NCBI GenBank assembly: GCA_964497535.1
Contig: CAZCCG010000001.1
Location: forward strand, 194,858 to 258,857
Direction: 5' to 3'
DNA: 64,000 bases
DNA from: an uncultured Gammaproteobacteria bacterium
GTDB lineage: Bacteria > Patescibacteriota > Microgenomatia > Levybacterales > UBA12049
The position numbers and the translations under genes were made by a program. Below the pieces are notes generated by a model. The model searched no databases. It saw only the letters and a program-made list of their open reading frames with translations, and had not been told where the DNA came from. Positions 7,866 through 56,517 of the stretch are shown in pieces; position 1 is the stretch's first letter, and each line of letters opens with the position of its first letter.

Positions 7866-8399
7866 TTATTGGAGTTTGTCAGGAACAAATCTGAGTGCCA
7901 GGGAATTCATACAATATCTTTTGCCGGTAGGCTTGGGTCCGTCATCAAAAACATGCCCCAAGTGCCCGCCGCATTTATCCAGTACTTCAATACGTGTTTC
8001 ACCCAGACTGTTATCTTCCGAAAGTACCACTGCGCCCGGCTGTATTGGAGCCCAGAAGCTGGGCCAGCCGGTACCTGAATCATATTTTTGTTCCGAGCGA
8101 AACACCGGTTCGTTGCATCCCACACTGTAGTATGTTCCTTTGCGTGTCTCATAATCCAGCAGCCCTGAAAAGGGAATTTCAGTACCTGCTTCCCGCAGGA
8201 TATGATACTGATCAGGAGTGAGAATCTTTTTCCACTGAGCATCGGTTTTGAATTTACTCTTGTCAAATGTCCCGGCGATAATCTGGGGAGTGGGCGAAGA
8301 AGTATCAGACGGTTGTGCGGGGGTTTGATGAGTAGCAAGAAAGATGATACCAAGCGTAATCACCACTGCGACAGTAAAAAAAAGGTACGGTCTTTTCAT
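7866..8399 (-). CDS. msrB: peptide-methionine (R)-S-oxide reductase MsrB with N-terminal membrane anchor/signal
   Basis: 177 aa. MsrB core (YSVGCNEPVFRSEQKYDSGTGWPSFWAPI...RIEVLDKCGGHLGHVFDDGPKPTGKRYCMNSLAL) preceded by a hydrophobic N-terminus and a linker. Confidence 0.8.
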   Translation of the reverse strand: MKRPYLFFTVAVVITLGIIFLATHQTPAQPSDTSSPTPQIIAGTFDKSKFKTDAQWKKILTPDQYHILREAGTEIPFSGLLDYETRKGTYYSVGCNEPVFRSEQKYDSGTGWPSFWAPIQPGAVVLSEDNSLGETRIEVLDKCGGHLGHVFDDGPKPTGKRYCMNSLALRFVPDKLQ

Positions 8400-8429: not shown

Positions 8430-8465
8430 CACACACCCGGTGTGTGGTAGGTAGACACATAAGGG
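8430..8465 (+). repeat. 36-bp palindromic element, copy 1 (CACACACCCGGTGTGTGGTAGGTAGACACATAAGGG)
   Basis: Member of a 5-copy family with consensus GCACACA-yCCGG-TGTGTGC-yAGsTAGACACAT. Lies about 35 nt upstream of the msrB start on the opposite strand. Confidence 0.75.
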
Positions 8466-8517
8466 TTTTAAAAGAAAAAAGGGCAACCCGCTAATAGCGA
8501 ATTGCCCATAAGTGTAG

Positions 8518-8838
8518 TTAGTCTTCCGGGAGCCAGATATTTTCCCATTGCTGGATAGCATCAATCATGGGTAATAAGTCCCTCCCTTTTTCTGTCAGGG
8601 TGTACTGGGTACGGATTGGAGGTGTACTATATACCTGGCGTGAAACAATGCCATACTGTTCCAATTCTTTGAGGCGCTCCGACAGCATGCGCGGACTGAT
8701 TCCTTCTACTATGATCTGGAGTGCGATGAACCCTTGCGGATTGACAAGTGCCCGCAGGATTTGAAACGTCCACCGTTTGCAGATCAGGTCAGCTGCTTGC
8801 TTACAACGCTCTTGAGTATAGTCAAAAGTATAGCTCAT
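8518..8838 (-). CDS. HxlR-type (MarR/DUF24 family) winged-helix transcriptional regulator
   Basis: The track ORF (8518..8922) opens with TTG. The likely ATG start gives MSYTFDYTQERCKQAADLICKRWTFQILRALVNPQGF...RMLSERLKELEQYGIVSRQVY...YTLTEKG, an HxlR signature with a conserved N-terminal Cys. A TATAAT box at about 8905-8915 lies upstream of it on the minus strand. Confidence 0.75.
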   Translation of the reverse strand: MSYTFDYTQERCKQAADLICKRWTFQILRALVNPQGFIALQIIVEGISPRMLSERLKELEQYGIVSRQVYSTPPIRTQYTLTEKGRDLLPMIDAIQQWENIWLPED

Positions 8839-8943
8839 GATCTCTTCCCCTTTGTAACTACTCTGCTCTCGGTACCTGGCACAAATGCCAGTACTCGGTA
8901 ATAACTGAGTATTATACCTCAAAATAAGCCTGAAGAAAAATTA

Positions 8944-8979
8944 GCACACACCGGATGTGTGGTAGCTATAAAAATAAAG
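8944..8979 (+). repeat. 36-bp palindromic element, copy 2 (third arm replaced by the U-tract of a terminator)
   Basis: GCACACACCGGATGTGTGGTAGCTATAAAAATAAAG. Sits immediately upstream of the HxlR-type gene on the minus strand. It abuts the terminator hairpin GCACCCTT..AAGGGTGC of the 9020..9436 gene. Confidence 0.75.
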
Positions 8980-9019
8980 CACCCTTAAGTTTTACCTCAA
9001 GGGTGCGGTGTGCGAAGAC

Positions 9020-9436
9020 CTACTCTTCTGAACTCGCGTTACTCAAGCGTCTCTTGTCTTTTTCTGCTGACTCTCTCCACTGCTTGAGTGCTTCCTCTTG
9101 CGTGAGAGGCAGCACTTCCGACTTATTCTCGGTTTTCCAGAGAATCAGCGTGACACGGTCATTGATTATCAGTTGCAGTCTCCTCGCCTGGGAGCGCTGC
9201 AGGATGATAATCGCCTTGGCAGGTCGGCTGCGGTACGTCTCGACAGAGATAATGTCCAGTGGAACCGCAAGGTAGTCTGCATACTCATTCGCAGCCTGTA
9301 TATCCGCATCAGATCTCAGCACTACGATGCCAATCTGCTTGTCATGGACGGTAGGCATGATCTCATCTCCTATTCCCTCTTGGGATGTTGTATCGCTGCA
9401 ATGAGGGAGTATAGCAAAATAAGATGCAATAATCAA
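9020..9436 (-). CDS. hypothetical protein (within higher-GC island)
   Basis: 138 aa ORF. The start is probably the internal MPTVHDKQIGIVVL. Followed on the minus strand by an intrinsic terminator at 8979-9006. GC about 50% against a local background of about 35%. Confidence 0.4.
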   Translation of the reverse strand: MIIASYFAILPHCSDTTSQEGIGDEIMPTVHDKQIGIVVLRSDADIQAANEYADYLAVPLDIISVETYRSRPAKAIIILQRSQARRLQLIINDRVTLILWKTENKSEVLPLTQEEALKQWRESAEKDKRRLSNASSEE

Positions 9437-9517
9437 ACTATGGGATTAAAAATAAAGTTTTGACTTCCTTTTTTCCTGAGTATATAATCGCACGAGCGTA
9501 GTGAAAGGAGATTTCCT

Positions 9518-9925
9518 GTGGCTGATACCCAAAAGCAGACGGTTGATCCTGAAGAATTCCGGTATCAACTTGCTCAATTGGTAGAAACAGAAGAGTTCCG
9601 ACAGACCTATGCGGATACAGTGGCAGCACTGCTGCAAGATCCGGGGTTTCTGGCATGGTCAGATGCCAAGTACGCGTCTCGAATTGCAGATGCTCGGAAA
9701 GAGCTGGCAGCGTGGTACCGGCGATACTGGAGGCTTGATGAAAAGCTGGCTTTGCTTCTCGCAGCAAATCACAAGTTTCCCTATCAACTCCTGGAGATGA
9801 GCCGCGAAGCGTTACTCGCAATTACGGGGATCACTCCGGTTCAAGTGCAGACGATCCGCCGCTATCGCAGCAGCAACGGCTTGCATCAGCTAGATATGTA
9901 TCTGCTGGTTGACTTGCTCAAGTAG
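9518..9925 (+). CDS. hypothetical protein with C-terminal helix-hairpin-helix (ComEA-like) motif
   Basis: GTG start 7 nt after an AAAGGAG Shine-Dalgarno site. A TTGACT-N17-TATAAT promoter at 9457-9485. C-terminal LLAITGITPVQVQTIRRYR is HhH-like. Higher GC. Confidence 0.45.
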   Translation: MADTQKQTVDPEEFRYQLAQLVETEEFRQTYADTVAALLQDPGFLAWSDAKYASRIADARKELAAWYRRYWRLDEKLALLLAANHKFPYQLLEMSREALLAITGITPVQVQTIRRYRSSNGLHQLDMYLLVDLLK

Positions 9926-10025
9926 CAGATACATCTTGTCCTGTGGCGGTCGAGTCAGACTCGATCGCCACTTTTACTTCATCTTTATGAATAAACAAAT
10001 CCGGTTAGTGTTATAGTATAGTTAT

Positions 10026-10279: not shown

Positions 10280-10315
10280 GCACACACCCGGTGTGTGCCA
10301 GCTAGACACCTAAGG
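10280..10315 (+). repeat. 36-bp palindromic element, copy 3
   Basis: GCACACACCCGGTGTGTGCCAGCTAGACACCTAAGG in an intergenic region between the higher-GC module and the restriction-modification module. Confidence 0.75.
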
Positions 10316-12516: not shown

Positions 12517-12789
12517 TTTTTTCTTTTTTGGTTTGGAGACTTCTTTGTAGCGAGCGATAACAATTAAGATTATAACGAGAATAAAAAGTATAATTGTAAT
12601 CTCACCGGCAATAATACTTGGATCCGCTCCGATAGTCCATAAATCTTTAGCGAACCATAAAAGTACAATTAAAGAGAAACCAATAATAAACCATCTGGGT
12701 GATCTGCCTTTTCCACCCCAATAGTCAAGGTCAAAATAGTTTTCATAGCCCAATAAGAATTCTTTAATTGAATTTTTCTTCTTGGCCAT
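12511..12789 (-). CDS. small two-TM membrane protein with Lys-rich C-terminus
   Basis: 92 aa. Two hydrophobic helices and a KPKKKKL tail. Copy 4 of the 36-bp element lies about 60 nt upstream of its start on the opposite strand. Confidence 0.45.
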   Translation of the reverse strand: MAKKKNSIKEFLLGYENYFDLDYWGGKGRSPRWFIIGFSLIVLLWFAKDLWTIGADPSIIAGEITIILFILVIILIVIARYKEVSKPKKKKL

Positions 12790-12848: not shown

Positions 12849-12886
12849 TGCACACATCCGGTTTGTGTGGCTAAAAGTTGACATAC
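12849..12886 (+). repeat. 36-bp palindromic element, copy 4 (variant with GTTTGTGTGG arm)
   Basis: TGCACACATCCGGTTTGTGTGGCTAAAAGTTGACATAC. Followed by a TTGACA-N17-TATTTT promoter for the downstream PUR-like gene. Confidence 0.7.
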
Positions 12887-22347: not shown

Positions 22348-23703
22348 ATGAAGAGTATTCAATTTTTGGGAGCAGCGGGAGAAGTGACAGGATCCTCATA
22401 TCTTTTGACCGGACACGATGACAGTAGCATTGTTATCGATTTGGGATTATTTCAAGGGTCAAAAGAAATTACAGACCACAATTATGATCCGCTTGGTTTT
22501 AGACCGTCTGACATCAAAGGTGTATTTCTCACTCATGCACATTTGGATCATGGGGGTCGCTTGCCGCTTCTGGTTTTTGGAGGCTATTTTGGCAAAATCT
22601 ATATGACTGCACCGACGGCAGCTCTTTTGGCATTATCCCTGACTGACGCGGCAAAAATTGCTCAGGAGACATTCGACCATGCACCGCTCTATGGCATGGA
22701 AGAAGTAGAAAAAGTTTTGGAAATGATTGAAATTGTTGAATATGGGAAGCAATTTCAGGTGGGAGGATTTTCTATTACATTTCGCGATGCCGGACATATC
22801 TTAGGATCTGCCAGTATAGAAGTTGTCGATACTTCTGATAAACAAAAAATAGTCTTTAGTGGTGATTTGGGCAATACACCTGAAGATATTGTCAAACCTA
22901 CCGAATATATCGAATCTGCTGACATTGTAGTGATGGAATCTACCTACGGAGATTCAACCCATCCCAAAGAAGATCCCACAGAAATACTGGGGCAGGAGTT
23001 GCAAAAGATTGATCAGGCAGGTGGAGTACTTCTGATTCCTGCTTTCTCATTGGAACGCACCCAGGAAGTGTTACATCGTATTCATCACCTCAAAAAAGAC
23101 GGCAAAATACGTGGGGATACCCCAGTTTTTTTGGATAGTCCCATGGGAATTCGGGCAACCCTTATTTTTCGGGAGTTTAAAACCTTTTACAATAAAGAAA
23201 TGCAAAGTCATACTGATGATCCATTCGGATTTGAGGGGTTGGTTGTTACGGAAGACGCAAAAGATAGCAAGGCAATTATTAAAGCTATGGAACCCAAGGC
23301 CATTATTGCCGGTTCGGGTATGATGTCAGGAGGCAGGATATTGCATCACGCGCTCAATTATTTATCCGATCCCAAAACAACAGTCCTTTTTGTGGGATAT
23401 CAGGCAGAAGAAACAGCAGGACGCAAAATTCTGGAAGGCGCGCGGAATGTAAGAATTTATGATAAGAATGTACAAGTAAAAGCTGCTATCCGGGAGATAA
23501 AGACGCTCAGTTCCCACGCTGATTCTCCAAAGCTTCTGGACTGGGTTTCTCATATCAAAAATGTAAAAAAAGTATTTTTGGTACATGGAGAAGAAAAACA
23601 GCGGCAGGCATTGGCAGACAAAATCAAAGGAGTTGGTATTACAGATATTATCCTGCCGCAATTGGGTGGCCAACATTCCTTGACAGCCAAAACGAAGGAA
23701 TGA
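22348..23703 (+). CDS. beta-CASP family metallo-beta-lactamase-fold RNA-metabolising hydrolase (RNase J/CPSF-like)
   Basis: 451 aa. HAHLDHGG, then beta-CASP motifs (ESTYGDSTH, HAD near the C-terminus). Confidence 0.75.
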   Translation: MKSIQFLGAAGEVTGSSYLLTGHDDSSIVIDLGLFQGSKEITDHNYDPLGFRPSDIKGVFLTHAHLDHGGRLPLLVFGGYFGKIYMTAPTAALLALSLTDAAKIAQETFDHAPLYGMEEVEKVLEMIEIVEYGKQFQVGGFSITFRDAGHILGSASIEVVDTSDKQKIVFSGDLGNTPEDIVKPTEYIESADIVVMESTYGDSTHPKEDPTEILGQELQKIDQAGGVLLIPAFSLERTQEVLHRIHHLKKDGKIRGDTPVFLDSPMGIRATLIFREFKTFYNKEMQSHTDDPFGFEGLVVTEDAKDSKAIIKAMEPKAIIAGSGMMSGGRILHHALNYLSDPKTTVLFVGYQAEETAGRKILEGARNVRIYDKNVQVKAAIREIKTLSSHADSPKLLDWVSHIKNVKKVFLVHGEEKQRQALADKIKGVGITDIILPQLGGQHSLTAKTKE

Positions 23704-24518: not shown

Positions 24519-24851
24519 TTAATACGCAGTTTTGCCGGGAGAAAGCGGTACCATGTGGGGGCCTGAATAATAGTGCCCTTGTGATTGGAACAGTTGTGGA
24601 TTGGTTGCCAGGAAATATATAAAGAGAATTGCGGTAAGGAATGTCACAATTGCGGGAGTAAGAATCACAACTTTAACCCATGACGGCCATTTCATCCAGA
24701 GAAATGTGAAAATCACTCCCAGTGGATAAAAGAACAATAATAAGAGAATAGTGATAATCGTTTTTGTGTCGTATGAAAGGTCTGCAGATGATGAGCGTTT
24801 TTTCTGTGCCATACTATTATTAAGACGAATTCCTAGGAAAATGTCAAGCAA
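24519..24851 (-). CDS. small membrane protein
   Basis: The start is probably the internal MAQKKRSS. Two TM helices. Lies downstream of the glycosyltransferase gene. Confidence 0.4.
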   Translation of the reverse strand: MLDIFLGIRLNNSMAQKKRSSSADLSYDTKTIITILLLLFFYPLGVIFTFLWMKWPSWVKVVILTPAIVTFLTAILFIYFLATNPQLFQSQGHYYSGPHMVPLSPGKTAY

Positions 24852-26208
24852 GTGGATGAGAAGTCAGATATTGCGCAGTATGTTCCCAAAACAGATGTAC
24901 ACCGGTTGATGTCAGCTCTATCACATGGCCGTCTTTTGCGTCTTCTTCAATGCGGCATTTGACCATTTCCCCAAAAATTCCAACCCGTTCACACCAGGTG
25001 ATAAATTGAGCAGATGGTTTGGAATGGAACGGCAGAACCAGTCCTCTCCAAGCAGAAGCCATAGCCAAAAGCTCCTGGCCCCGCTGGTTTTGCAGTGGAT
25101 CATCCATGCGTGCTTTTTCAAAGAGCTCTTGTTCTATATGATGGCCCGGTATGAGATGATGGCGTCTGAGAAATTCCAGATTATCCCGTTCCTGTTGTCC
25201 GACCGGATTTGAAAACAGAAGCAGCGTTCCTCCCCGTTGGGTAGGATTGCACAGACACTTAAATGCCTGCTCACTGGGTTTGGTAATTTCCAATGAGATC
25301 GTTGTCTGGTGAAAAAGCAGATCATAATTATTGACGGTTCCCCGATCATGAGATGATACATGGAGCTGGACAAATGGTTTATCCAGCATATACCCCAGGA
25401 AGTTTTTGGTATAGGGTGCGTCTTTTACTACGATATGGAATAAAAATCGCTCGGAGATTTGATGCAGGTTATCGATTAAATCTGCCACAAATGTTGTGCC
25501 GACTGCTGCTCCTGAAATGGGTACTGACACATGGATATGTGATTTTTTTTCAGGATCCAGCTGGTCTTTCCGATTGGTGAGTTGTTCATGAGTCAGATGT
25601 CGGGTCAGATCAGGACTGACAGGATAAGCTAACACTTCAAAGTTGACCGGTGGGATATGGTAGGTTTTGCCAAAGTGTACGAGCTTTTCACGAGTTGTAA
25701 AGCTGGGAACAAAAATAATATCGGCACCATCCACATACCAGATTGGATGAGGACTATCATCGGTTACCTGGACTACCAGAATAATCCTGACTTGTCTTTT
25801 TTTCTCAACGATGCCTTTAATTTCTGCAAGTTGATGGGCCAATCCAAAATGCGTGGCAACGATAAGGATTGTCTGGGGCAAATCGATCCGTTCATCCAGG
25901 ATAGTAGTAAGTTGTTGATACAACAATTTAGTATGGCTTCGAAGCATTAGCCGATACACATAAGCGGCAATATCCTGTAACCATCCTCGTTGTACCACCT
26001 CAAACATTGCACGAGTGATGGGGTGAATACTGATAAAACGGTGAATCCAGCTGATTGATTTGTCCTGGGTTCCCAAAAGAACCGGTGTTATTTCTTCAGG
26101 CAGTCCCCGATAGAGTGCGTCGGTAACACGCAAATGTCCCAAGCCTGCGGGGGCGAAAGCAAAAACTAAAACCAATGACTTTTTCTCAAGAATAGAGAAA
26201 GTATTCAT
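24844..26208 (-). CDS. GT-B fold glycosyltransferase (MGDG-synthase/MurG-like, family 28-like)
   Basis: 454 aa. The N-terminal FAPAGLGHLRVTDAL resembles the glycine-rich loop of MGDG synthase and MurG N-domains. Weak. Confidence 0.45.
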   Translation of the reverse strand: MNTFSILEKKSLVLVFAFAPAGLGHLRVTDALYRGLPEEITPVLLGTQDKSISWIHRFISIHPITRAMFEVVQRGWLQDIAAYVYRLMLRSHTKLLYQQLTTILDERIDLPQTILIVATHFGLAHQLAEIKGIVEKKRQVRIILVVQVTDDSPHPIWYVDGADIIFVPSFTTREKLVHFGKTYHIPPVNFEVLAYPVSPDLTRHLTHEQLTNRKDQLDPEKKSHIHVSVPISGAAVGTTFVADLIDNLHQISERFLFHIVVKDAPYTKNFLGYMLDKPFVQLHVSSHDRGTVNNYDLLFHQTTISLEITKPSEQAFKCLCNPTQRGGTLLLFSNPVGQQERDNLEFLRRHHLIPGHHIEQELFEKARMDDPLQNQRGQELLAMASAWRGLVLPFHSKPSAQFITWCERVGIFGEMVKCRIEEDAKDGHVIELTSTGVHLFWEHTAQYLTSHPLA

Positions 26209-26239
26209 AGATTAAGTGTAGTAAACAACAGAAGCAGAT

Positions 26240-26272
26240 ACAAGTTAGTGAAGTGTATAAAAAAAGCCCCGG
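26240..26272 (-). terminator. intrinsic terminator (GCCCCGGC-GCTA-GCCGGGGC plus U7) for gene 26275..26841
   Basis: Perfect 8 bp GC stem. On the minus strand it is followed by TTTTTTT. Confidence 0.8.
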
Positions 26273-26274
26273 CG

Positions 26275-26841
26275 CTAGCCGGGGCTGTAAGTATCACCAG
26301 AGGGAAGAGCCAAGAGCACCATTGGTGAATTGAGAACCCGAGGTTCATAAACCAGCACTTCGGTGCTCACATACTCCTTCTTTACCAGGACCCTGCTCTG
26401 CAGCATTTCCTGGTTGGTGAAGATCACGAGCGGTCCATTCCTAGGTGCCCACAGGCACCCGAAGAACCAGCGGGCATCAGTCTCGCTGGGGAAGAGTTCG
26501 TAGACGACCCGAGGCAACGCCTCGGCCCAGTCAAAACCGTAGTCGTTGTCCATATGCATGGGCACGACACGGTCCGAACCCAGGTCGGGGATTTCCTGAC
26601 AGATAAACCGCCACACGTGAGGTTCATCGGCGAGCCGGAAGGAGGCGAGTACCTCCCACAGTTTGTTGTGAAAGGCAATCATGCTCCCCGGCTGGTAATC
26701 CTGGGTGAACCGGGGCGGCTTGCCCGCCGGCATCAGTTCCACCTCCTCGAGGTGAGATTCCTCGTCCCAGGTGCGCATGCGGATGAGTTCTTCATCATCC
26801 AGGTAAAACCCGTGGATCGGATCGCCAACCTGAACACTCAT
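26275..26841 (-). CDS. hypothetical protein (higher-GC island gene 1)
   Basis: 188 aa. AAGGAG Shine-Dalgarno site 7 nt before the ATG. GC about 55%. Own promoter and terminator. Confidence 0.55.
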   Translation of the reverse strand: MSVQVGDPIHGFYLDDEELIRMRTWDEESHLEEVELMPAGKPPRFTQDYQPGSMIAFHNKLWEVLASFRLADEPHVWRFICQEIPDLGSDRVVPMHMDNDYGFDWAEALPRVVYELFPSETDARWFFGCLWAPRNGPLVIFTNQEMLQSRVLVKKEYVSTEVLVYEPRVLNSPMVLLALPSGDTYSPG

Positions 26842-26890
26842 GGTAACTCCTTCTGAAATGTGCGCTGAGGTACAGTTGTACCATCATAGA

Positions 26891-26930
26891 GGAATATAGC
26901 ATACCCGCCCCTGCGAGTCAATACTACAGG
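26891..26930 (-). promoter_or_regulatory. consensus sigma70 promoter P1 (TTGACT-N17-TATATT), one of three near-identical copies
   Basis: On the minus strand: CCTGTAGTATTGACTCGCAGGGGCGGGTATGCTATATTCC. Confidence 0.7.
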
Positions 26931-26984
26931 CTTCTGTCTCTGGAATAAGAAAGGGCGGCCCCGTATGGGGTCGCCCTGTTGGAT

Positions 26985-27470
26985 TTACTGCTGAGTAGTT
27001 CTCTCGGGTTCTGGGTCAGGGGGAGCCTTGCTCATGTCAATGCTAGCAATTGGCGTGAGGCTTCCCTCCTCGTCGCTTCCTCGAGGGAGGAAGGTTACCT
27101 CCCACCCGCACGTGCGGTAATGTTCAGCAACTCGCCGATAGACGAGTCGGGCATACTGAGGCGGTACAGTCCCTTCCCATACGAATAGTGCTTCGTTGAG
27201 TCGTACCACCGATATGCTCACGTCGAAGTCATCGGTGGTCAACAGCGAATCGATCGCTAACTCGCAGACAGCGTTCGCTGCTTGAATCACGCGATCTACT
27301 CGTATGCGACGCCGCTTGATCGACGGTGGCGGTCTGTCGCGGGAACCCATTTCACTCCTCCCCTTCCATAGTCTATGAGCGCCTCCGTGGATACCAGCTA
27401 GGGTACCCACAAAGCCACTCACAGCAAAAGGATTAGCTTTACCACGAACTATTAAAGAACTACTAATCAT
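26985..27470 (-). CDS. hypothetical protein (island gene 2); likely start at the internal MGSRDRPP preceded by GGAGGAG
   Basis: 161 aa ORF. The internal Met at about 27350 has a strong Shine-Dalgarno site. Terminator hairpin GGGCGGCCCC..GGGGTCGCCC at 26949-26982. Confidence 0.45.
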   Translation of the reverse strand: MISSSLIVRGKANPFAVSGFVGTLAGIHGGAHRLWKGRSEMGSRDRPPPSIKRRRIRVDRVIQAANAVCELAIDSLLTTDDFDVSISVVRLNEALFVWEGTVPPQYARLVYRRVAEHYRTCGWEVTFLPRGSDEEGSLTPIASIDMSKAPPDPEPERTTQQ

Positions 27471-27516
27471 AAATAAGATAGAGTTTTTGTATCTACAGAA
27501 GGATAGATTTAGTTAG

Positions 27517-27557
27517 AGGAATATAGCAGAAAGAATAGTACATGTCAACACTACAGG
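27517..27557 (-). promoter_or_regulatory. consensus sigma70 promoter P2 (TTGACA-N17-TATATT)
   Basis: On the minus strand: CCTGTAGTGTTGACATGTACTATTCTTTCTGCTATATTCCTC. Confidence 0.7.
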
Positions 27558-27636
27558 ATGTTATGTTGAAGGAGGTGCCATTGACTGAAAAGGACTAAAG
27601 AAAACCCCCTTCAGCAGAAGCCGAAGAGGGTAACGA

Positions 27637-27882
27637 TTAACTACAGTATGGGCAAGGGATTTTCCCCGCATCTGCCATAGAGTCGAGGTACCCTTTCCCG
27701 TGGCAATGTGCGCAACGAGTCACGGTTTTATGGCCGAATCGTTGCGAGTGCTCGTTCTGCTGGCCGGTTCCTCCGCACCACGTGCAGGTGAACCTGCCTG
27801 AGTCGGTCATAGAATCCATCTTGCCGGTGCCGTAGCAGCCGGCACAGATCTCTTCCCGTGGGCCACCCTGATAGCTACTCAT
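27637..27882 (-). CDS. small cysteine-rich protein with four CxxCxGxG repeats (DnaJ CR-type zinc-finger-like)
   Basis: 81 aa. CAGCYGTGK, CTWCGGTGQ, CAHCHGKGY, CPYC. AAGGAG Shine-Dalgarno site. Terminator at 27590-27636. Confidence 0.6.
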   Translation of the reverse strand: MSSYQGGPREEICAGCYGTGKMDSMTDSGRFTCTWCGGTGQQNEHSQRFGHKTVTRCAHCHGKGYLDSMADAGKIPCPYCS

Positions 27883-27911
27883 GTATGTCTCCTTTCAGAC
27901 ACCACTATTGA

Positions 27912-28304
27912 CTACTTGATCCATAGGGCATACTGCCCTACCGGAACCAATTTACCCTTTCGGGTAAAAGGCAGATCCGCTACACGGTATCCCTCCCTCA
28001 TCAGCCTAGCATGCAACCGAGTCGGCTGATCAGGGTGAGGAAATACCCCATGCATCTCCCATCCCTGAGCGAGAGCCTCCTGCGCCGTGTGAGGAAATGC
28101 CTGGACGAGTTCGTGAACCTCATCCTCCGTCAACCATTCCGAGAGAGGGCTTAGCTCCCTCAGGTCGTGGAAGAGCTTCTGACGACCTGCCTCTTCCCGC
28201 GGAAGAAGCCGATCATCTTCGTACCAGTGGGTATCCGGCATATAAGTCTCCTCTCGATGAATATGGCGTTGAAGAAATATAGCATACATACGTCCGGGAG
28301 TCAA
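27912..28304 (-). CDS. hypothetical protein (island gene 4); likely start at the internal MPDTHWYED
   Basis: The track ORF opens with TTG inside promoter P3. The internal ATG has an AGGAG Shine-Dalgarno site 7 nt upstream. No recognisable domain. Confidence 0.5.
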   Translation of the reverse strand: MTPGRMYAIFLQRHIHREETYMPDTHWYEDDRLLPREEAGRQKLFHDLRELSPLSEWLTEDEVHELVQAFPHTAQEALAQGWEMHGVFPHPDQPTRLHARLMREGYRVADLPFTRKGKLVPVGQYALWIK

Positions 28305-28313
28305 TACTACAGG
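28271..28313 (-). promoter_or_regulatory. consensus sigma70 promoter P3 (TTGACT-N17-TATATT)
   Basis: On the minus strand: CCTGTAGTATTGACTCCCGGACGTATGTATGCTATATTTCTTC. Coordinates plus or minus 1. Confidence 0.7.
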
Positions 28314-28378
28314 ACGTGAGTTTGGGGTGGAGGGAGTTTGAACATACTGTTTTTAACAAAGACGCCTTGGAAATTAGT

Positions 28379-28684
28379 CTAAATCAGACCGGAAAAAAGC
28401 AGAATCACAACCACTGCGGTAATAGCTGCAAAGACTCCTACCGTTTGGACAAATAGGGTTACTGCTCCTTTTTTCTTTCCTTCAATAAAAAGCTGAAGTG
28501 GTTGATAAAAAAACAGGTAGGCCATTACTGTGACAGAGAGGGTGAGTAATGATATAAATGTGATTGGGGCCAGAATTGTATCAGGTTTGTGCCTTTGAGT
28601 TTGAGACACAAAATTTATAATGATGACAACGAGAAATATGTAAGCTGAAGCGCTCAGAGCATTAATAATAGGATTCTTAGACAT
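28379..28684 (-). CDS. small membrane protein (3 TM)
   Basis: 101 aa and hydrophobic throughout. Confidence 0.45.
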   Translation of the reverse strand: MSKNPIINALSASAYIFLVVIIINFVSQTQRHKPDTILAPITFISLLTLSVTVMAYLFFYQPLQLFIEGKKKGAVTLFVQTVGVFAAITAVVVILLFSGLI

Positions 28685-30141: not shown

Positions 30142-30666
30142 CTATTTTCCGTTTTTCCATGACCTTGCCATAAAGCGTTCTTCTTTTCCTGTTAGTACGT
30201 CAATGACTTTTTTAAGATTTTTTTCTTTTGCATCATTTGTTTTAAGCCAGGAAAAGTAGCGTAAAATCTCCTTTTTTCTACTGGGAATTAATTTTTCCCA
30301 GTTGCTTTGTGCAACAGGGTTTTTATCAAGAGCATCTTGAAGAAAAGGGATCATCTTATATTCCAGCGGTTTTGAATTATGTTCAATGTCAAAAGTAACT
30401 TCTTTGCCGATTATTTCACTAATACTTTTTGAAAACTTTATCTTTGCGGCTTTGGCCATGATTATATTGATATAAAGCCTCCAATTTCCTTGATATCTTA
30501 CGAGTGATTGGTAAAATATAGCCCCATTTAACTTACCCTTTATCGATATTGGACTCGTTTGTTTTCCTGCTTGTTGAAAGATGGCATGCAAAATATCATC
30601 TGGTGGACGGACGTAAGGATTGCCGTTGATAATAGAAACTGTTGCAGAAAACTTGCGAGTGGACAT
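30142..30666 (-). CDS. DUF1905 / YdeI-OmpD-associated family protein
   Basis: 174 aa. An N-terminal DUF1905-like beta domain (SATVSIINGNPYVRPPDDIL...) and a C-terminal YdeI-like segment. Leaderless: TATAAT lies 7 nt before the ATG. Confidence 0.55.
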   Translation of the reverse strand: MSTRKFSATVSIINGNPYVRPPDDILHAIFQQAGKQTSPISIKGKLNGAIFYQSLVRYQGNWRLYINIIMAKAAKIKFSKSISEIIGKEVTFDIEHNSKPLEYKMIPFLQDALDKNPVAQSNWEKLIPSRKKEILRYFSWLKTNDAKEKNLKKVIDVLTGKEERFMARSWKNGK

Positions 30667-31105: not shown

Positions 31106-31134
31106 AATTATAGCAGAAGCAAAGAGTGCTCCCC
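31106..31134 (-). repeat. 29-bp direct repeat copy 2 (overlaps the last 6 nt of tRNA-Asn)
   Basis: Identical to 30672-30700. Contains a TATAAT used as the -10 box for the VOC gene. Confidence 0.7.
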
Positions 31135-31200
31135 CGCGAGGATTCGAACCTCGAACCTTTTCGTTAACAGCGAACCGCTCTACCGTTGAGCTACAGGGGA
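31129..31200 (-). tRNA. tRNA-Asn (anticodon GTT)
   Basis: On the minus strand: TCCCCTG TA GCTC AACGGTA GAGC G GTTCG CTGTTAA CGAAA AGGTT CGAGG TTCGAAT CCTCG CGGGGGA G. Cloverleaf with a 7 bp acceptor stem, T-loop TTCGAAT, and anticodon loop CT-GTT-AA. Confidence 0.85.
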
Positions 31201-31439
31201 ATATATTTTTTAATAAACTGTCTTCCTTGATAACTTTTTAACTGTTTTTCTCTTCTAAGTGCGCTTATTCTATCCTTTGTTTCCTCGTTATATATTAGTT
31301 GCCATTCTCCGTCAAGTTTTGCGGTAAAACTATTCTTAAACGCTCTTTCTGTATGTAATCTCAGCCTTTCTTCTAAATTCTCTGTTTGGCCGACGTATAT
31401 TCTATTATGCTTCTTATTGTATAAGGCGTAAACTATCAT
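31191..31439 (-). CDS. GIY-YIG nuclease-superfamily small protein (YhbQ/UPF0213-like)
   Basis: 82 aa. IVYALYNKKHNRIYVGQTENLEERLRLH is a GIY-(x10)-YIG signature. Its 3' end overlaps the tRNA 5' end by about 10 nt. Confidence 0.65.
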   Translation of the reverse strand: MIVYALYNKKHNRIYVGQTENLEERLRLHTERAFKNSFTAKLDGEWQLIYNEETKDRISALRREKQLKSYQGRQFIKKYIPL

Positions 31440-33161: not shown

Positions 33162-33204
33162 ACAGAAGTAAATCTAGCCGACTAAAAAGTCCTATAGTCT
33201 TGAC

Positions 33205-34491
33205 ATGCAGCTCGGCTTTTGTTATACTCTAGCCATAATTACCATGGCTAAACATGCACAATCCCCAAAAAGCAGGAATGGACTCATAGTGACTATGATA
33301 ATCATGGCTGCTTTAGCCATGCAACTTTTTATCGCGTTTCACTTTGAAGGCACCGGTGATACAGGAGCGTGGCGGTTGATAGGCAAAACAGGGTTGCATG
33401 GCCAACAGTATGGAGTAGGAAACGGCACGGTATACGATGGGGATTGTCCGGCTCTATGCGGAAATTGGCCTCCTTTTACGTATCATTCTTATATTATTAC
33501 CCGGTGGCTGTATGAACAGGTGAATCCATTTCGATTCCCGGATTATGGCTATTACAAATTAATTCCCATAGGGAGTTCCGGCCTTATCCTGTATCTCATT
33601 TATAAACTCGCACTTCTCTATAAGCTCAAGAATCCTTTACTGCTTGTTTTTCTTTACGCCTTTCACCCATTATCTTTCTACATTACTGCATACCATGGTC
33701 AGAGGGAGGTTACGTGGTTGGCACTGCTGCTTCTTTCGATCCTCCTTTTGCAGATGAAGCACTATATCTGGTTTGCCATACTTTATGCAGGAAGTGTATC
33801 GGTAAAAATTCCTCCGTTGTTATTTGCGCCATTTCTTTTTCTCAAATTACCAACCGGAAGAAATCGGGTACTATTTGTTGTGCTTCTTCTTCTCATATTT
33901 TTTGTACTGAATTTGCCTGAAACCGTGCTTTATACTTCCAATGTTGGTAGACAAGTATTCCTGTATCCCGGAATACCTAGTTGGTGGGGGTTATCCGGCT
34001 TGGAAACGAGAGTATCTGGTGTTGTAGGCCAGCCTTCTTTAGCCCAACTGTTGCTTCCCCTCAACAAAGCTCTTTTGTATGCATCAATTCTTATTATAAG
34101 TGTTTATTTTTATTTCAAAAAAATGCCAATTATTGAGAGTTGTTTGGGGGTTCTTATGACGGTTTTTGTGTTTACCCCAATCTATGCATCAGAATATATG
34201 CTGTGGCCTCTGCCATTTATGGTACTTGCCTATTACAAATACACACCATTATTTTGGTTCTATTCATTGTTCGCTTGCTTCGCTGCTATAAATACCTATG
34301 GAATATTTGGAGTGCGTATTCTTGAGACACTAGTTTTGAAACTTCCGCAAACCACCCTTTATTCTACCCTATTACATTTATCTATTCCTTGGGATCTGTA
34401 TATGCCTTTGTGGATTGTGTGTATCATAGGTTTGTTTACTGTAGCAAAAAGAATAAACCATTCAGCTAGTTCGTCAGGAGGATTAAGATGA
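33205..34491 (+). CDS. polytopic membrane glycosyltransferase, GT-C fold (ArnT/PMT/GT83-39-like); true start probably MAKHAQ at about 33244
   Basis: 428 aa, more than 10 TM. A TTGACA-N17-TATACT promoter overlaps the track start. Followed by a GT2 gene and a LAB_N gene, forming a polyprenol-P glycosylation module. Confidence 0.5.
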   Translation: MQLGFCYTLAIITMAKHAQSPKSRNGLIVTMIIMAALAMQLFIAFHFEGTGDTGAWRLIGKTGLHGQQYGVGNGTVYDGDCPALCGNWPPFTYHSYIITRWLYEQVNPFRFPDYGYYKLIPIGSSGLILYLIYKLALLYKLKNPLLLVFLYAFHPLSFYITAYHGQREVTWLALLLLSILLLQMKHYIWFAILYAGSVSVKIPPLLFAPFLFLKLPTGRNRVLFVVLLLLIFFVLNLPETVLYTSNVGRQVFLYPGIPSWWGLSGLETRVSGVVGQPSLAQLLLPLNKALLYASILIISVYFYFKKMPIIESCLGVLMTVFVFTPIYASEYMLWPLPFMVLAYYKYTPLFWFYSLFACFAAINTYGIFGVRILETLVLKLPQTTLYSTLLHLSIPWDLYMPLWIVCIIGLFTVAKRINHSASSSGGLR

Positions 34492-39769: not shown

Positions 39770-40519
39770 TTAGATTGGTTCTTGATAAATTACGTCTTCC
39801 ACTACACCCAATATTCTCGTATGAAGATGGGGGAATTCAAGCGTTTTACCTGTTGTTCTGATTCTTTTTCGTAGCTCTCCAAGCGTAGGTAGGTTTTGGT
39901 CATCATATCTTTGGGAGGGTTCTTGGGGTGAGCCAAACAAACTATAAATCGGGTCATCCGTAATTTGGTGCGGATAATCGGACAGCTTGGGAAGCTCCTG
40001 TCCATAACGGATCCGTTCCCGTTTTGTTTTTGAAGATTCTTTCTCGTGATACTCACTCCATGAGTCATATCGTTTCTCGGATAAATGCATTGTTTTCGTG
40101 CATAAAAAACTCCCACACATACAATTGTGAATACAGGGATCACACCATTTGTCCAGAGGACTGAGCAGATAAGAAACGGTCAATTCCTCGCCTGCAAAAA
40201 TATGCCGAAGGGCAAAAAAAAGTGTATGGCCACGATAGGTATACATCCAACAATTTGGAGTGCATGAATGGTTGATCAGATGAATACCGGGTTTTTTGAT
40301 ATCAGTAGGGTAAATTGAGGCTCTGTCATGATAATACATCAGATATAATTCATCATCTTTTTCATAGATAGTCTCCTCAGCTGTCTTTAAAACACGTCCC
40401 AGATAGTCACCGATAATAGTGCCCGGATTAATATCTTTTTTCGCAAAAACCCCTCTGCCTTTTTTCTCCGTAGTTTTAATTTTCCAGTAATCTTTTGTGA
40501 GCAAAAACATAGAATTCAT
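39770..40519 (-). CDS. SET-domain protein (putative protein lysine methyltransferase)
   Basis: GRGVFAKKDINPGTIIGDYLG, NHSCTPNC, GEELTVSY and a post-SET Cys cluster CDPCIHNCMCGSFLC. The track ORF (to 40576) opens with TTG. Confidence 0.75.
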   Translation of the reverse strand: MNSMFLLTKDYWKIKTTEKKGRGVFAKKDINPGTIIGDYLGRVLKTAEETIYEKDDELYLMYYHDRASIYPTDIKKPGIHLINHSCTPNCWMYTYRGHTLFFALRHIFAGEELTVSYLLSPLDKWCDPCIHNCMCGSFLCTKTMHLSEKRYDSWSEYHEKESSKTKRERIRYGQELPKLSDYPHQITDDPIYSLFGSPQEPSQRYDDQNLPTLGELRKRIRTTGKTLEFPHLHTRILGVVEDVIYQEPI

Positions 40520-40602
40520 TCTATCATATAGAGGAGATGAAAGAAAAAATGAGGCTAGTTCATGCCTGCAGCCCAAAACCTATAGTCATTGACAACTGCT
40601 GT

Positions 40603-40637
40603 ATAATGTGCTATAATGCGTCTATTGCAGGTATAAA
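40603..40637 (+). promoter_or_regulatory. consensus sigma70 promoter (TTGACA-N17-TATAAT) with a roughly 145 nt 5' UTR for the DEAD-box helicase gene
   Basis: TTGACAACTGCTGTATAATGTGCTATAATG. Confidence 0.65.
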
Positions 40638-40782: not shown

Positions 40783-41940
40783 ATGTTTAGAAAGTCGTTC
40801 CAACAAAGAAATCGTTTTGCACCACGCAAAGCAAAAGTAAAAACTATGGATCCAACCCTATTGGTTCGTAGTGCGGTAGAAACCAGAGCGCAACCAACTC
40901 CTCATATAGCACATCAATTTGCCGATTTTCTTATTAGTGATCAAATCAAAAGAAACATTGCAGCCAAAGGATACACAACGCCCAGTCCTATTCAGGATCA
41001 AGTTATTCCTCTCGTTTTGGCAGGCAGAGATGTCGTTGGTATCGCAAATACAGGAACGGGTAAAACAGCTGCATTTTTAGTACCTCTGATTAATAAGATT
41101 TTATATAACCGATCTGAAAAGGTATTGGTTGTAGCACCCACACGAGAACTTGCCGTCCAAATTCAGGATGAACTGAAATCTTTTTCTGCCGGCATGAATA
41201 TTTTCTCAGTTCTTTGTATTGGTGGAGTCAGTATGTATAACCAGATACAGGGATTGCGAAGAAATCCCAATTTTGTGATCGGAACTCCAGGACGATTAAA
41301 GGATCTCAAAAATCAAGGAAGACTTTCCATTGCTTCATGTCAGACGATTGTTCTGGATGAAGTTGACCGCATGTTGGATATGGGATTTATTAACGATGTG
41401 CGATTTCTTATGTCTCATTTACCCAAAATTCGACAATCATTATTTTTTTCAGCAACCTTATCTCCTGAAATTAAAACTATTATTCATACCTTTGCGCAAA
41501 ACCCTGCAATGATTTCGGTAAAAGTCCAGGAAACTGCGTCCAATGTAGACCAGGATATTATAAAAACCCATGGACGACCAAAGTTTGATGTACTTCATGA
41601 TTTACTCAGACAAGATGGGCTTGATAAAGTTATTGTTTTTGGACGTACCAAATGGGGAATAGAAAAATTAGCAAAACAACTGAACATTAAAGGATTGTCA
41701 GTTGTAGCGCTTCATGGTAATAAGAATCAAAATCAACGTCAAAGAGCATTGGAACAATTTCGCCGTAATGAAGTATCCATTCTTTTGGCAACAGATATTG
41801 TTGCTCGGGGTATTGATATTGATGATGTAACCCATGTTATCAATTATGATATACCGCCAACGTACGAAGATTATGTCCATCGTATTGGAAGAACTGGCAG
41901 AGCCCAAAAAAAAGGTATTGCCCTTACATTTGTTGATTAA
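40783..41940 (+). CDS. DEAD-box ATP-dependent RNA helicase
   Basis: 385 aa. Q-motif, GTGKT, PTRELA, DEVD(R), SAT, and HRIGRTGRA. Confidence 0.9.
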   Translation: MFRKSFQQRNRFAPRKAKVKTMDPTLLVRSAVETRAQPTPHIAHQFADFLISDQIKRNIAAKGYTTPSPIQDQVIPLVLAGRDVVGIANTGTGKTAAFLVPLINKILYNRSEKVLVVAPTRELAVQIQDELKSFSAGMNIFSVLCIGGVSMYNQIQGLRRNPNFVIGTPGRLKDLKNQGRLSIASCQTIVLDEVDRMLDMGFINDVRFLMSHLPKIRQSLFFSATLSPEIKTIIHTFAQNPAMISVKVQETASNVDQDIIKTHGRPKFDVLHDLLRQDGLDKVIVFGRTKWGIEKLAKQLNIKGLSVVALHGNKNQNQRQRALEQFRRNEVSILLATDIVARGIDIDDVTHVINYDIPPTYEDYVHRIGRTGRAQKKGIALTFVD

Positions 41941-47541: not shown

Positions 47542-47577
47542 GCACACATCCGGTGTGTGCTAGGTAGACACATCGGG
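47542..47577 (+). repeat. 36-bp palindromic element, copy 5
   Basis: GCACACATCCGGTGTGTGCTAGGTAGACACATCGGG. About 35 kb from the other four copies, on the same strand. Confidence 0.75.
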
Positions 47578-47579
47578 AT

Positions 47580-48161
47580 TTATCCTTTTGTTGTTTTCCT
47601 AGAGAGCTTTGGTCTGATAATTAAAAGGACCATACAAAGATTAATAATCATAATATAAATTGGGTAGGATGATTGTTGAATATTCCAACTGGTGAGTGCA
47701 AGAAGACTAAATATGGCAGCACAGACATCGAGTAGATAAAAACTCCATACTTCGGTATCCGGAAAATGAAACGTTTTAAGTAGTGCCGGAATCATGCCGG
47801 TAAAATCTGCAGCTATGGCGCAGTAGAGCGCAATGATAGGGTTATTGGTTGTTTTCCATAAAATTATGCCCACTAGAGCAATACCCAGGCAGACCAGGTC
47901 CATTTTTGCCCATCCTCCCATTCCGAATTTAATACTTAAAGTAAATACGATGATTGATTGAAGTGTGGAAACTGCTGCAAGCCAAATAGCTACCGTATCA
48001 TGGGCTGCAAACAGAGACGCTGTCGTAAGACTGGTAATAAGTAATAAAACAAAACGGGTAGTACGGTGAGGTTTTGCATTTCCTTTTAAAATTGCTTGTG
48101 CATATACGAAGGGAGAAATCAAAGCAAGAATGCTGCTAACGATAATAAAGCTTTGTTGCAT
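47580..48161 (-). CDS. polytopic membrane protein (6 TM)
   Basis: 193 aa and hydrophobic. Confidence 0.45.
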   Translation of the reverse strand: MQQSFIIVSSILALISPFVYAQAILKGNAKPHRTTRFVLLLITSLTTASLFAAHDTVAIWLAAVSTLQSIIVFTLSIKFGMGGWAKMDLVCLGIALVGIILWKTTNNPIIALYCAIAADFTGMIPALLKTFHFPDTEVWSFYLLDVCAAIFSLLALTSWNIQQSSYPIYIMIINLCMVLLIIRPKLSRKTTKG

Positions 48162-54333: not shown

Positions 54334-56517
54334 TCAAGCGGCAATAACTATCTTACCGTTCTCAACTTTTGGAGTAATAGTATCACCTGGTTTAATTTTA
54401 TCTTCGGTAATTTTAAGGGCTATTTCATCGACTAATTTTTCTTCAATGAGCCGTTTTAGGGGACGCGCTCCAAATACAGGGTCATATCCGTATTCTGCGA
54501 AGTAAAAGGCGAGCTCGTCTGAAACTTTCAGTTCAATTCCATTTTCACGCATGCGTTCCTGGACTGAATCTAACTGCAATTTTGTGATTTGTAAGATATC
54601 CCGTGCGGAAAGTGTATTGTAAATAACCACTGAATCAAATCGATTCAGAAATTCCGGGCGAAATGAATGATGAAGCAATTCCCAGATTCTTTTATCCAGT
54701 TCTTCTTTTTTCTTATCATGGTGGGATTTTTTGGAACTTGCTGTTTCTGTGGAATATTCCTGGATAATCTCGCTACCGATATTGCTTGTCATGATAATAA
54801 TAGTATTTCTAAAATCGACAGTCACTCCCTTACTATCAGTGAGTCTTCCTTCATCCATGATTTGAAGAAAAATATTAAAAATTTGGGGATTTGCTTTTTC
54901 TATTTCATCAATCAGAACAACAGAGTATGGTTTTCTTCGTACGGCCTCAGTAAGTTGTCCTCCTTCTTCATATCCTACATATCCTGGAGGTGCCCCAATG
55001 AGTCTGGCTACCGTATGAGATTCTTGATATTCGCTCATATCAATACGAGTCATAGCATGTTGATCGGAAAATAGAATTGTTGCCAAAGCTTTAGCAGTTT
55101 CTGTTTTTCCAACTCCTGTTGGACCCAAGAACAGAAATGATCCGATTGGTTTATTTTTCGCGGCAAGTCCTGTACGAGATCGTCTGATTGCTCGTGCCAA
55201 AACATGAAGTGCTTCTTTTTGTCCAATAACCCGCTGTTCCAATTCTTCCTCTAAATGTGCAAGCTTTTGGGATTCTGTTGCAAGGAGCCGCGTTATTGGA
55301 ATACCGGTCCACCGTGATACAACGCGAGCGATATCCTGGGCGTCTACTTCTTCACGCAAAATTCTCTGGTCATGAGGAATGGTATTCCATTCTGCAGTTA
55401 TCGTTGATAATTGTTTTTCAAGTTCTGGAATCTTGCCATACTTTATTTCTGCTGCTTTTTGAAGATCAATCGTTCGTTCTGCTTGTTCAAGCTCAATTCG
55501 ATATGAGTCTATTTTTGCCCGTAAGTCTTGAATTTTTTTAATAATTTCCTTCTGTTCATTCCATCGTGTCTCAATATCCGCAGACTGTTTTTTCAGACTA
55601 TCTAATTCCTTTTCCAAATTATCCTTCCGTTGTTTTGCACTGTCGTTTTTTTCTTTCTTCAACGCTGCTTTTTCAATCTCTACTTGGGTAGTTCTGCGTT
55701 TGAGTGAATCAAGCTCTGTTGGCATACTTTCTGTCTCAATTTTAATAGATGCTGTTGCCTCATCGACTAAATCAATTGCCTTGTCTGGCAGGAACCGTTG
55801 CGCAATATATTGTGCGGAAAGTTTTGCTGCTGCTATCAATGCATCATCAGTAATTCTAATTCCATGATGGAGTTCATATTTTTCTTTAATGCCCCGTAAA
55901 ATTGCTATGGTATCTTCAATGGTTGGCTCTTCAACCATAACAGGTTGGAAACGTCGTGCAAGAGCCGGATCTTTTTCAATGTATTTGCGGTATTCACTTA
56001 GAGTTGTTGCTCCAATCATCCGAAGTGAACCACGTGCCAACGATGGTTTTAGAATATTGGCCGCGTCAACTGATCCTTCTGCTGCCCCTCCGCCTACCAG
56101 GGTATGCAACTCATCAATAAACATAATGTATTTTCCTTCTCCTTCCTCAACTGCTTTAATAACTCCTTTGAGACGGTCTTCAAATTCACCTCTGAATTTT
56201 GCTCCTGCCAAAAGTTGGGCAAAATCCAATACTATGACTTCTTTATTTTTCAAAGTCGTAGGGACACTTCCTGCGGCAACCTTTTGTGCCAAACCTTCTA
56301 CAATTGCTGTTTTTCCCACGCCAGGATCTCCAATAAGAATTGGATTATTTTTGGTTCTTCGGGATAAAATCTCCATTACCCGGCGAATTTCAGTTTCACG
56401 TCCTACAACCGGATCAATTTTATTTTTTCGAGCGGAATCAGTTAGATTCAATGTAAATTTGTTGAGCGCTTCCTGCGGAGTTATGGGTTTTAATAAATCT
56501 TGTAAGTTCTGATCCAT
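54334..56517 (-). CDS. clpB: ClpB-like AAA+ disaggregase lacking the N-terminal domain
   Basis: 727 aa. Starts at the NBD1 linker. Two Walker A motifs ([16 protein letters not shown]), a coiled-coil middle domain, and sensor and substrate-recognition motifs. Confidence 0.85.

Follow-up and report, generated by a model that had tools for sequence, protein, structure and literature searches.

The stretch analysed here, referred to as the window, comprises 64,000 nucleotides of contig CAZCCG010000001.1 (forward-strand positions 194,858 to 258,857; GenBank assembly GCA_964497535.1), deposited as an uncultured Gammaproteobacteria bacterium and placed by GTDB in the Patescibacteriota (Microgenomatia, Levybacterales, UBA12049). 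It contains an island of high G+C content that carries four small open reading frames (ORFs), genes A to D, all on the minus strand; the island measures about 2.1 kb, and its limits were refined to positions 26265-28313. Within 26230-28330 the G+C content amounts to 53.4%, and within the refined limits to 53.8%, compared with 38.4% in the remaining window, and the island has the highest G+C value of any 2-kb segment of the window (mean, 0.39; standard deviation, 0.035). An initial annotation of this DNA, made from the letters alone, had put the island at about 55% G+C; the value over the span that it gave is 53 to 54%, and the four ORFs reach 56 to 57% each. The G+C content at third codon positions (GC3) ranges from 0.58 to 0.71 in the island genes, compared with 0.335 ± 0.06 and a maximum of 0.45 in 36 host ORFs, which places the island genes 4 to 6 host standard deviations above the host mean. 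The island DNA is compositionally foreign to its host. It also contains an AT-rich segment of 170 nt (27433-27603; 32% G+C), in which the middle one of three promoter-like sites is located.

The four genes form three transcription units, namely D plus C, B, and A. Gene D (27912-28241; 109 aa; GC3 of 0.60) is the first gene of the D-C unit and is followed, after a gap of 29 nt, by gene C (27637-27882; 81 aa). These two genes share one unit, so the earlier view that each of the four genes has its own promoter and terminator does not hold for them. Gene B (26985-27350) encodes 121 aa from an ATG; gene callers lengthen it to 161 aa from position 27470, but that start has no Shine-Dalgarno (SD) sequence, is AT-rich and would span a leader hairpin. 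Gene A (26275-26841; 188 aa; GC3 of 0.71) is a long-form member of an unnamed family. An SD site precedes all four genes, as annotated, reading AAGGAG for A, GGAGGAG for B, AAGGAG for C and GAGGAG for D. The annotated GC-rich hairpin plus U-tract was likewise recovered at the end of each transcription unit, with three minus-strand hairpins of -19.6 to -21.2 kcal/mol. The terminator of the D-C unit (27604-27631) has a 12-bp stem (-21.2 kcal/mol) followed by UUUUCUUU, that of the B unit (26952-26977; -19.6 kcal/mol) is followed by UUUCUUAUU and has a palindromic stem that the scan reported on the plus strand, and that of the A unit (26265-26286; -20.4 kcal/mol) is followed by UUUUUUU. The gene B leader is about 170 nt long and folds at 27362-27432 (minus strand) into a 22-bp imperfect stem (-40.2 kcal/mol; z = -6.8) with no U-tract, which ends about 10 nt before the SD site. 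This hairpin has no match in Rfam, which otherwise gave only weak terminator-like matches. The hairpin could act in mRNA processing, as a stabilising element or in translational control.

Each unit is preceded by a member of a 41-nt repeat family (26890-26930, 27517-27557 and 28273-28313), and these three near-identical, promoter-like sites have the form CCTGTAGT-N-TTGACW-17-TGC-TATATT on the minus strand. The site before the D-C unit, P_DC (28273-28313; -35 at 28304), and that before gene A, P_A (26890-26930; -35 at 26921), both read CCTGTAGT-A-TTGACT, and the site before gene B, P_B (27517-27557; -35 at 27548), reads CCTGTAGT-G-TTGACA; all three continue with a 17-nt spacer and TGC-TATATT. 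The initial annotation had reported the three copies together with their 17-nt spacer, but the third reads TATATTTCTTC and not TATATTC(C/T)TC. Within the window, CCTGTAGTRTTGAC with two or fewer mismatches has five matches against 0.42 expected, the three exact ones being the island copies, and TTGACW-N14-TGCTATATTYCTC occurs at the island sites only (0.06 expected). In a promoter scan, the three sites ranked first in the region, with sigma70-like scores of 11/12, 10/12 and 10/12, a 17-nt spacer and the TG of an extended -10. At the level of sequence, each has the -35, 17-bp spacer, TGn and -10 of a sigma70-type extended -10 promoter. An alignment of the three copies showed that only CCTGTAGT-N-TTGAC and T-TGCTATATT-C/T are conserved. 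Since conservation is confined to the promoter elements and the spacers have diverged, the repeat looks like the result of functional constraint rather than of recent duplication.

The strict form of this promoter pattern had no match in IMG/VR and four single matches in 185,579 genomes, the window's own genome not being among them. All four can be explained as generic strong promoters; they belong to a T-box-like leader, a BlaI-type regulator, a cold-shock gene and a small-RNA-like unit. A relaxed pattern with the G version gave 10 singletons in IMG/VR, mostly within coding sequence and about as many as estimated by chance. As a separate observation, a Patescibacteria metagenome-assembled genome (JBAYUK010000001.1; L003, 3460-3567, minus strand) has a strong promoter, GTAGTATTGACT-N-GTATGCTATATT, before a unit of about 60 nt that ends in a hairpin and a T-run, which is a candidate small RNA.

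The promoter architecture is not restricted to the island. In the window, CCT[AG]TAGT-N1-2-TTGAC has five occurrences where 0.015 are expected: three in the island and two at host sites, the latter both on the plus strand. The first host promoter (33191-33229; CCTATAGT-C-TTGACA, 17-nt spacer, TGT-TATACT) lies upstream of a 428-aa ORF with no family match and a GT2 gene, and the second (40579-40619; CCTATAGT-CA-TTGACA, 17-nt spacer, TGC-TATAAT) lies about 170 nt before a DEAD-box helicase gene (40783-41940). Both carry the CCTATAGTC box immediately 5' of a TTGACA-17-TGn-TATAnT consensus. Divergent from the boxed promoter of the helicase gene is a gene for a bacterial SET-domain protein (39770-40576, minus strand; PF00856, E = 1.6e-19). 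The 8-bp element CCTRTAGT, which reads CCTGTAGT in the island, is located at about -44 to -37; it is also present at 33191 and 40579 and is therefore a feature of the organism's own promoters. Unlike an UP element it is not rich in A, and its length falls short of that of a classical dimeric operator. Two other identities were considered and rejected. ACTATAGG, which is the host box in reverse complement, is similar to the core of a T7-type promoter, but the rest of such a promoter is absent; a second -10 for a leaderless start is permitted by the layout at 33191 but does not agree with those at 40579 and in the island. The initial annotation had regarded the repeated promoter as typical of phages or plasmids, a view that is not sustained, since the same architecture stands before host genes.

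Translation signals also separate the island from its host. All four island genes have an SD site and a leader, whereas a single one of 36 large host ORFs has an SD site within 20 nt of the start. A TAnnnT box, often with a preceding TGn, begins at -14 to -11 relative to the start codon in 33 of 51 host ORFs; examples are the starts at 1781, 13658, 15515, 22348 and 23752 and those of the minus-strand ORFs 7866-8399, 30142-30666, 47580-48161 and 54334-56517. The position of these boxes and the rarity of SD sites indicate that most host mRNAs are leaderless and are transcribed from extended -10 promoters; the TGn extension is common in the host's own promoters too. Leaderless, SD-free host genes are a trait at the level of the lineage.

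The promoter class common to the island and two host genes would suit the idea that genes A to D are native, highly expressed genes whose G+C content and signals deviate for functional reasons. However, this explanation is strongly disfavoured, because the GC3 of the island genes lies so far above the host mean and their SD-led design stands in a leaderless genome. In addition, genes A and D have no close relatives outside the same sample (a word-indexed search of 5.8 G proteins returned only the genes themselves or sequences from that sample), and members of the gene A family are carried on viral contigs, as described below.

The abrupt change of composition at both island ends could also arise if 2 kb of another organism's DNA had been joined into the contig during assembly. 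Both junctions, however, are 100% identical to the window in two Logan assemblies from separate sequencing runs (SRR9179560 and SRR9179563; L001 and L002), which makes an assembly chimera very unlikely. The promoter class common to the island and the host genes and the absence of any junction repeat able to mislead an assembler point in the same direction, and we regard a chimera as scarcely credible. In the preferred explanation, the island is fixed in the chromosome of a bacterium with 38% G+C, in the intergenic gap that separates a gene for a small membrane protein (101 aa) from a glycosyltransferase-like gene. The glycosyltransferase-like gene starts at 26208, 57 nt past the last island terminator.

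Gene A provides evidence on where the island came from. A phmmer search of 1.84 G representative proteins gave 47 matches at E ≤ 1e-3, the best with E = 2.4e-46 and 51% identity, and no sequence match was found in Pfam, PADLOC, PHROGs or the PDB. The family members are about 140 to 190 aa long and have in common the motifs GKPPKLRFxPG, YEIxYAYRL, PHEW, TPRxVYExF and DAxxFF; W77 and F117 are invariant, and R46, G52, R69, P74 and F127 are at least 90% conserved. Four short-form members are located on contigs of 28 to 135 kb with 53 to 62% G+C, among dozens of small, unannotated ORFs that are densely arrayed in the same direction; the neighbours include T4_Y16D, DUF4942, ART-PolyVal and the PHROG methyltransferase and nucleotidyltransferase genes. 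Four further members are carried on IMG/VR viral contigs of 15 to 208 kb, three of which have 57 to 60% G+C. No homologue of gene B, C or D was found next to any gene A relative, which indicates that the four-gene combination is unique to this locus.

An AlphaFold model of gene A built from a 38-sequence alignment (pLDDT, 82.8; pTM, 0.74) shows an SH3/Tudor-like barrel and an alpha/beta C-terminal part. Foldseek searches of this model against the PDB and BFVD gave no significant match, for the whole chain included; the matches to the barrel have 4 to 15% sequence identity, and the remaining residues, about 130, match nothing. The conserved columns of the family include no catalytic-type motif, and gene A would therefore probably encode a binding protein acting on a host macromolecule. 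Binding to RNA polymerase may be taken as a lead from the predicted barrel, not as a result.

The other three proteins resemble little in the databases searched. Genes B and D match nothing in Pfam, PADLOC, PHROGs or the sequences of the PDB, and gene C has only a subthreshold zinc-finger match. The product of gene B has a basic N terminus and an acidic, proline-rich tail, and its single-sequence AlphaFold2 model, an alpha-beta-beta-alpha-beta arrangement, is poor (pLDDT, 56.8). That of gene C contains three full CxxCxGxG motifs (C13, C33 and C57) and a terminal CPYC, giving four CxxC pairs and two possible zinc centres; the initial annotation had counted four CxxCxGxG repeats, of which the fourth proves to be CxxC only. 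Gene C scores 26.7 bits against PF00684 (DnaJ_CXXCXGXG; gathering threshold, 32.7; E = 6.6e-6) and 27.9 bits against PF15777 (Anti-TRAP; gathering threshold, 32). It is a candidate DnaJ-type finger miniprotein with two zinc centres, as judged from these subthreshold matches.

The island could also be an antiphage defence or toxin-antitoxin module, for example with the D-C pair as one system, B and A as effectors, and strong constitutive promoters serving immunity. In favour of this are the small size of the genes, their location in an accessory patch of foreign composition, an operon of two genes of which one encodes a zinc-finger protein, and a neighbourhood rich in small accessory and detoxification genes. 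Such a module would be compatible with a moron-like origin of the genes (see below). On the other hand, PADLOC gave no match below E = 0.1 for the island proteins (none better than E = 0.13), and no toxin, antitoxin, nuclease, ATPase or other enzymatic domain of Pfam was detected in the four proteins. A conserved pairing is also missing, in that homologues of B, C and D are absent beside the gene A relatives. We therefore consider a defence module unlikely.

A homologue of gene A also forms a cassette in another organism. The long-form homologue P0014 (L033-L035) has 34% identity to gene A, and its gene, with 52 to 55% G+C in a background of about 40 to 45%, has a leader of about 165 nt, an SD site and a terminator-like hairpin. 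On contig L033 (800-2000), this cassette is bracketed by a 48-nt direct repeat (807-854 and 1831-1878; 83% identical), the first copy of which overlaps a glucosaminidase-like host gene at its end. Two related promoters on the same contig carry the exact 9-mer CCTATAGTC within the spacer, in the form TTGACA-N2-3-CCTATAGTC-N5-7-TAnnAT. In its layout, the locus resembles an insertion that duplicated its target, or else a duplicated promoter region. For P0009 (L016), the closest gene A homologue, a GC-rich gene likewise follows an AT-rich, terminator-containing flank. Self-contained cassettes of chromosomal style seem to be typical of the long-form subfamily, and the short form seems to occur in tightly packed phage operons.

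The boxed promoter was further encountered on a viral contig. On L036 (IMGVR_UViG_3300022538_001038; 47% G+C), positions 12520-12604 of the minus strand read CCTATAGT-A-TTGACA-N14-TGC-TATAGT and are followed by a leader, an SD site and an array of small, SD-led genes; the TGC extension is present on L037 too. The IMG/VR scan that yielded L036 and L037 had six pattern matches, about the few that are estimated to arise by chance for a pattern of that length, and it tentatively suggests use of this promoter class by phages of such hosts; L036 may be a phage of a related host. A bolder proposal is that the CCTRTAGT box marks a lineage-specific promoter class or regulon into which GC-rich, SD-led gene A cassettes were wired independently in at least two organisms, that of the window and that of L033, and that the Tudor-like barrel, in the manner of the CarD and UvrD domains, acts on the transcription machinery. 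The island would then be a small phage-derived module, not described before, that a dedicated host element controls. We regard this as speculative and rather improbable.

Taken together, the island is best explained as horizontally acquired DNA of about 55% G+C that is most likely phage derived and consists of three self-contained units of moron-like accessory genes, an explanation to which we assign a probability of about 60%. A moron is an independent transcription unit that carries both a promoter and a terminator of its own and differs from its neighbours in G+C content (PMC3594210). Each island unit would be transcribed from a sigma70-type promoter close to the consensus (TTGACW, 17 bp, extended -10 TGCTATATT), which the host RNA polymerase should read as strong, and the units would probably be coregulated with host genes through a recogniser of the 8-bp CCTGTAGT element. 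Each mRNA would have a leader and a strong SD site, a design foreign in this host, and a strong intrinsic terminator would end each unit and shield the host gene that lies beyond. The products are small and contain no recognisable enzyme domain; they may have a binding role, and the likeliest function would be that of phage-exclusion or physiology-modifying factors kept from the early or accessory region of a phage.

Several observations weigh against this explanation. The scan of flanking ORFs, between about 21 and 33 kb of the window, detected no phage gene (structural genes included) and no integrase, recombinase or plasmid gene, so that the island is not a moron in the strict sense. A repeat search at the locus found no direct repeats flanking the island, and a scan of metagenomes with the flanking glycosyltransferase found no related genome without the island; a metagenome scan with the long-form gene A alignment found nothing. 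The promoter repeat is uninformative on phage origin because the promoters belong to the host class, and the activity of promoters and terminators is read from their letters only. Comparing the proteins with phage and viral databases, as the initial annotation had proposed, placed the gene A family on IMG/VR contigs and gave no relatives of B, C or D, either in 50,697 GenBank phage records (tblastn) or in the IMG/VR scans. The gene A family, too, is absent from the same GenBank phage records (tblastn with gene A and the family member P0018) and from PHROGs, which, given its presence on IMG/VR contigs, suggests that it belongs to uncultured phages. Finally, the long-form gene A alignment found no relative on any viral contig of IMG/VR, and the closest, long-form relatives of gene A sit on short contigs of unclassified nature. 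The earlier interpretation is thus upheld in part, as regards foreign DNA, autonomous units and a gene A family carried on contigs of uncultured phages, but B, C and D have no phage relatives in the searches made, and a phage origin of the island as a whole is what we infer.

The lack of phage genes beside the island, the lack of phage relatives of B, C and D and the absence of the long-form subfamily from IMG/VR would also be in keeping with another source, such as a different bacterium, a plasmid or an integrative element, with phages merely carrying the gene A family as well. However, the island DNA has no match in 72,556 plasmids (blastn). Moreover, all of the family members that can be read on contigs of at least 15 kb lie in phage-like arrays of small ORFs or on IMG/VR viral contigs, and the G+C content of those contigs (53 to 62%) matches that of the island. 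We consider a nonphage source rather unlikely, and phage-derived DNA remains the preferred explanation.

The surroundings of the island are ordinary chromosomal genes, which encode a DUF1345 protein, the glycosyltransferase-like protein, a carotenoid-synthesis protein, a DUF1428 protein, OmdA, several glyoxalases, an MFS protein and tRNA-Asn; MutS, MutL, ClpB and GlgA are encoded farther away. Two ORFs of 60 to 110 aa (24519-24851 and 28379-28684) had no family match. An 82-aa stand-alone GIY-YIG gene (31191-31439, minus strand) overlaps the 5' end of the tRNA-Asn gene (31128-31200, minus strand) by about 10 nt, in surroundings that hold four glyoxalase-family genes. The plus-strand ORF 22348-23703 encodes a 451-aa metallo-beta-lactamase/beta-CASP protein that matches the NCBIfam model 'type VII CRISPR-associated Cas14' with E = 6.9e-109, but its score of 365 bits is far below the cutoff of 800 bits, and aCPSF1 was matched as well; the product is probably an ordinary beta-CASP ribonuclease.

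Another GC-rich patch, less pronounced than the island, is located at 8500-9975, with 46 to 49% G+C, a GC3 of 0.53 to 0.61 and three SD-led genes, which encode an HxlR-type regulator (8518-8841, minus strand) and two orphans (9020-9358, minus strand, and 9518-9925, plus strand). Its strong promoter-like sites, TTGACT-17-TATAAT at 9460 (plus strand) and TTGATT-17-TGC-TATACT at 9436 (minus strand), have no CCTRTAGT box, and GC-rich terminators lie at 8507, 9006 and 9943, a cassette style like that of the island. The palindromic intergenic repeat CACACAYCCGGTGTGTG, which resembles a repetitive extragenic palindrome, occurs five times in the window against 0.04 expected (8430-8446, 8945-8961, 10281-10297, 12851-12867 and 47543-47559). 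Three of its copies bracket the patch at 8.4 to 10.3 kb, and none adjoins the island at 26 to 28 kb.

As it stands, the island is a further example of a horizontally acquired accessory island with orphan genes, fairly ordinary and with a few unusual details. Gene A represents an uncharacterised family, common to large uncultured phages and chromosomal cassettes, that is not in Pfam or PHROGs and for which a confident model is available. The foreign genes keep a leader and an SD site in a leaderless genome, which makes the locus a natural test case for the expression of foreign genes. The CCTRTAGT element of 8 to 9 bp, which is common to host genes, the island, the gene A cassette of a second organism and a viral contig, could provide a handle on transcription control.

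The island can be compared with several known systems. It resembles a row of integron cassettes in being a series of short foreign modules in one orientation, but integron cassettes are normally promoterless, end in attC and lie near intI, whereas the island units are each equipped with a promoter and a terminator; inverted repeats resembling attC were not found at their boundaries, and no integrase family was found among the window ORFs scanned. The CxxCxGxG repeats of gene C are spaced like those of the cysteine-rich domain of DnaJ (PF00684), but gene C has no J-domain, and its fourth repeat is CxxC only. Like Anti-TRAP (PF15777), gene C encodes a stand-alone small protein, but it has no trp-operon context. 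The predicted barrel of gene A recalls the Tudor/SH3-like domains of the UvrD/PcrA C terminus and of CarD/CdnL, which interact with RNA polymerase; since VapX, KOW, domain I of EF-P and chromatin Tudor domains match equally well, only a generic barrel is common to them.

The host-takeover module of SPO1 lies in the terminal redundancy of this Bacillus phage and has repeated strong sigmaA promoters and strong ribosome-binding sites. It comprises 24 small early genes whose products have little similarity to characterised proteins (PMC10531801). The island is likewise a cluster of small orphan genes, but it has four genes only, is chromosomal and has no sequence relationship with the SPO1 module. 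Phage morons, such as the HK97 gene 15 element, are recognised as insertions inside a phage or prophage genome by comparison with related phages, and they are expressed from a repressed prophage. The island lies between chromosomal genes with no prophage around it, so that this mode of expression does not apply. What the island has in common with morons is a promoter and a terminator of its own and a deviant G+C content, here repeated in three units in a row.

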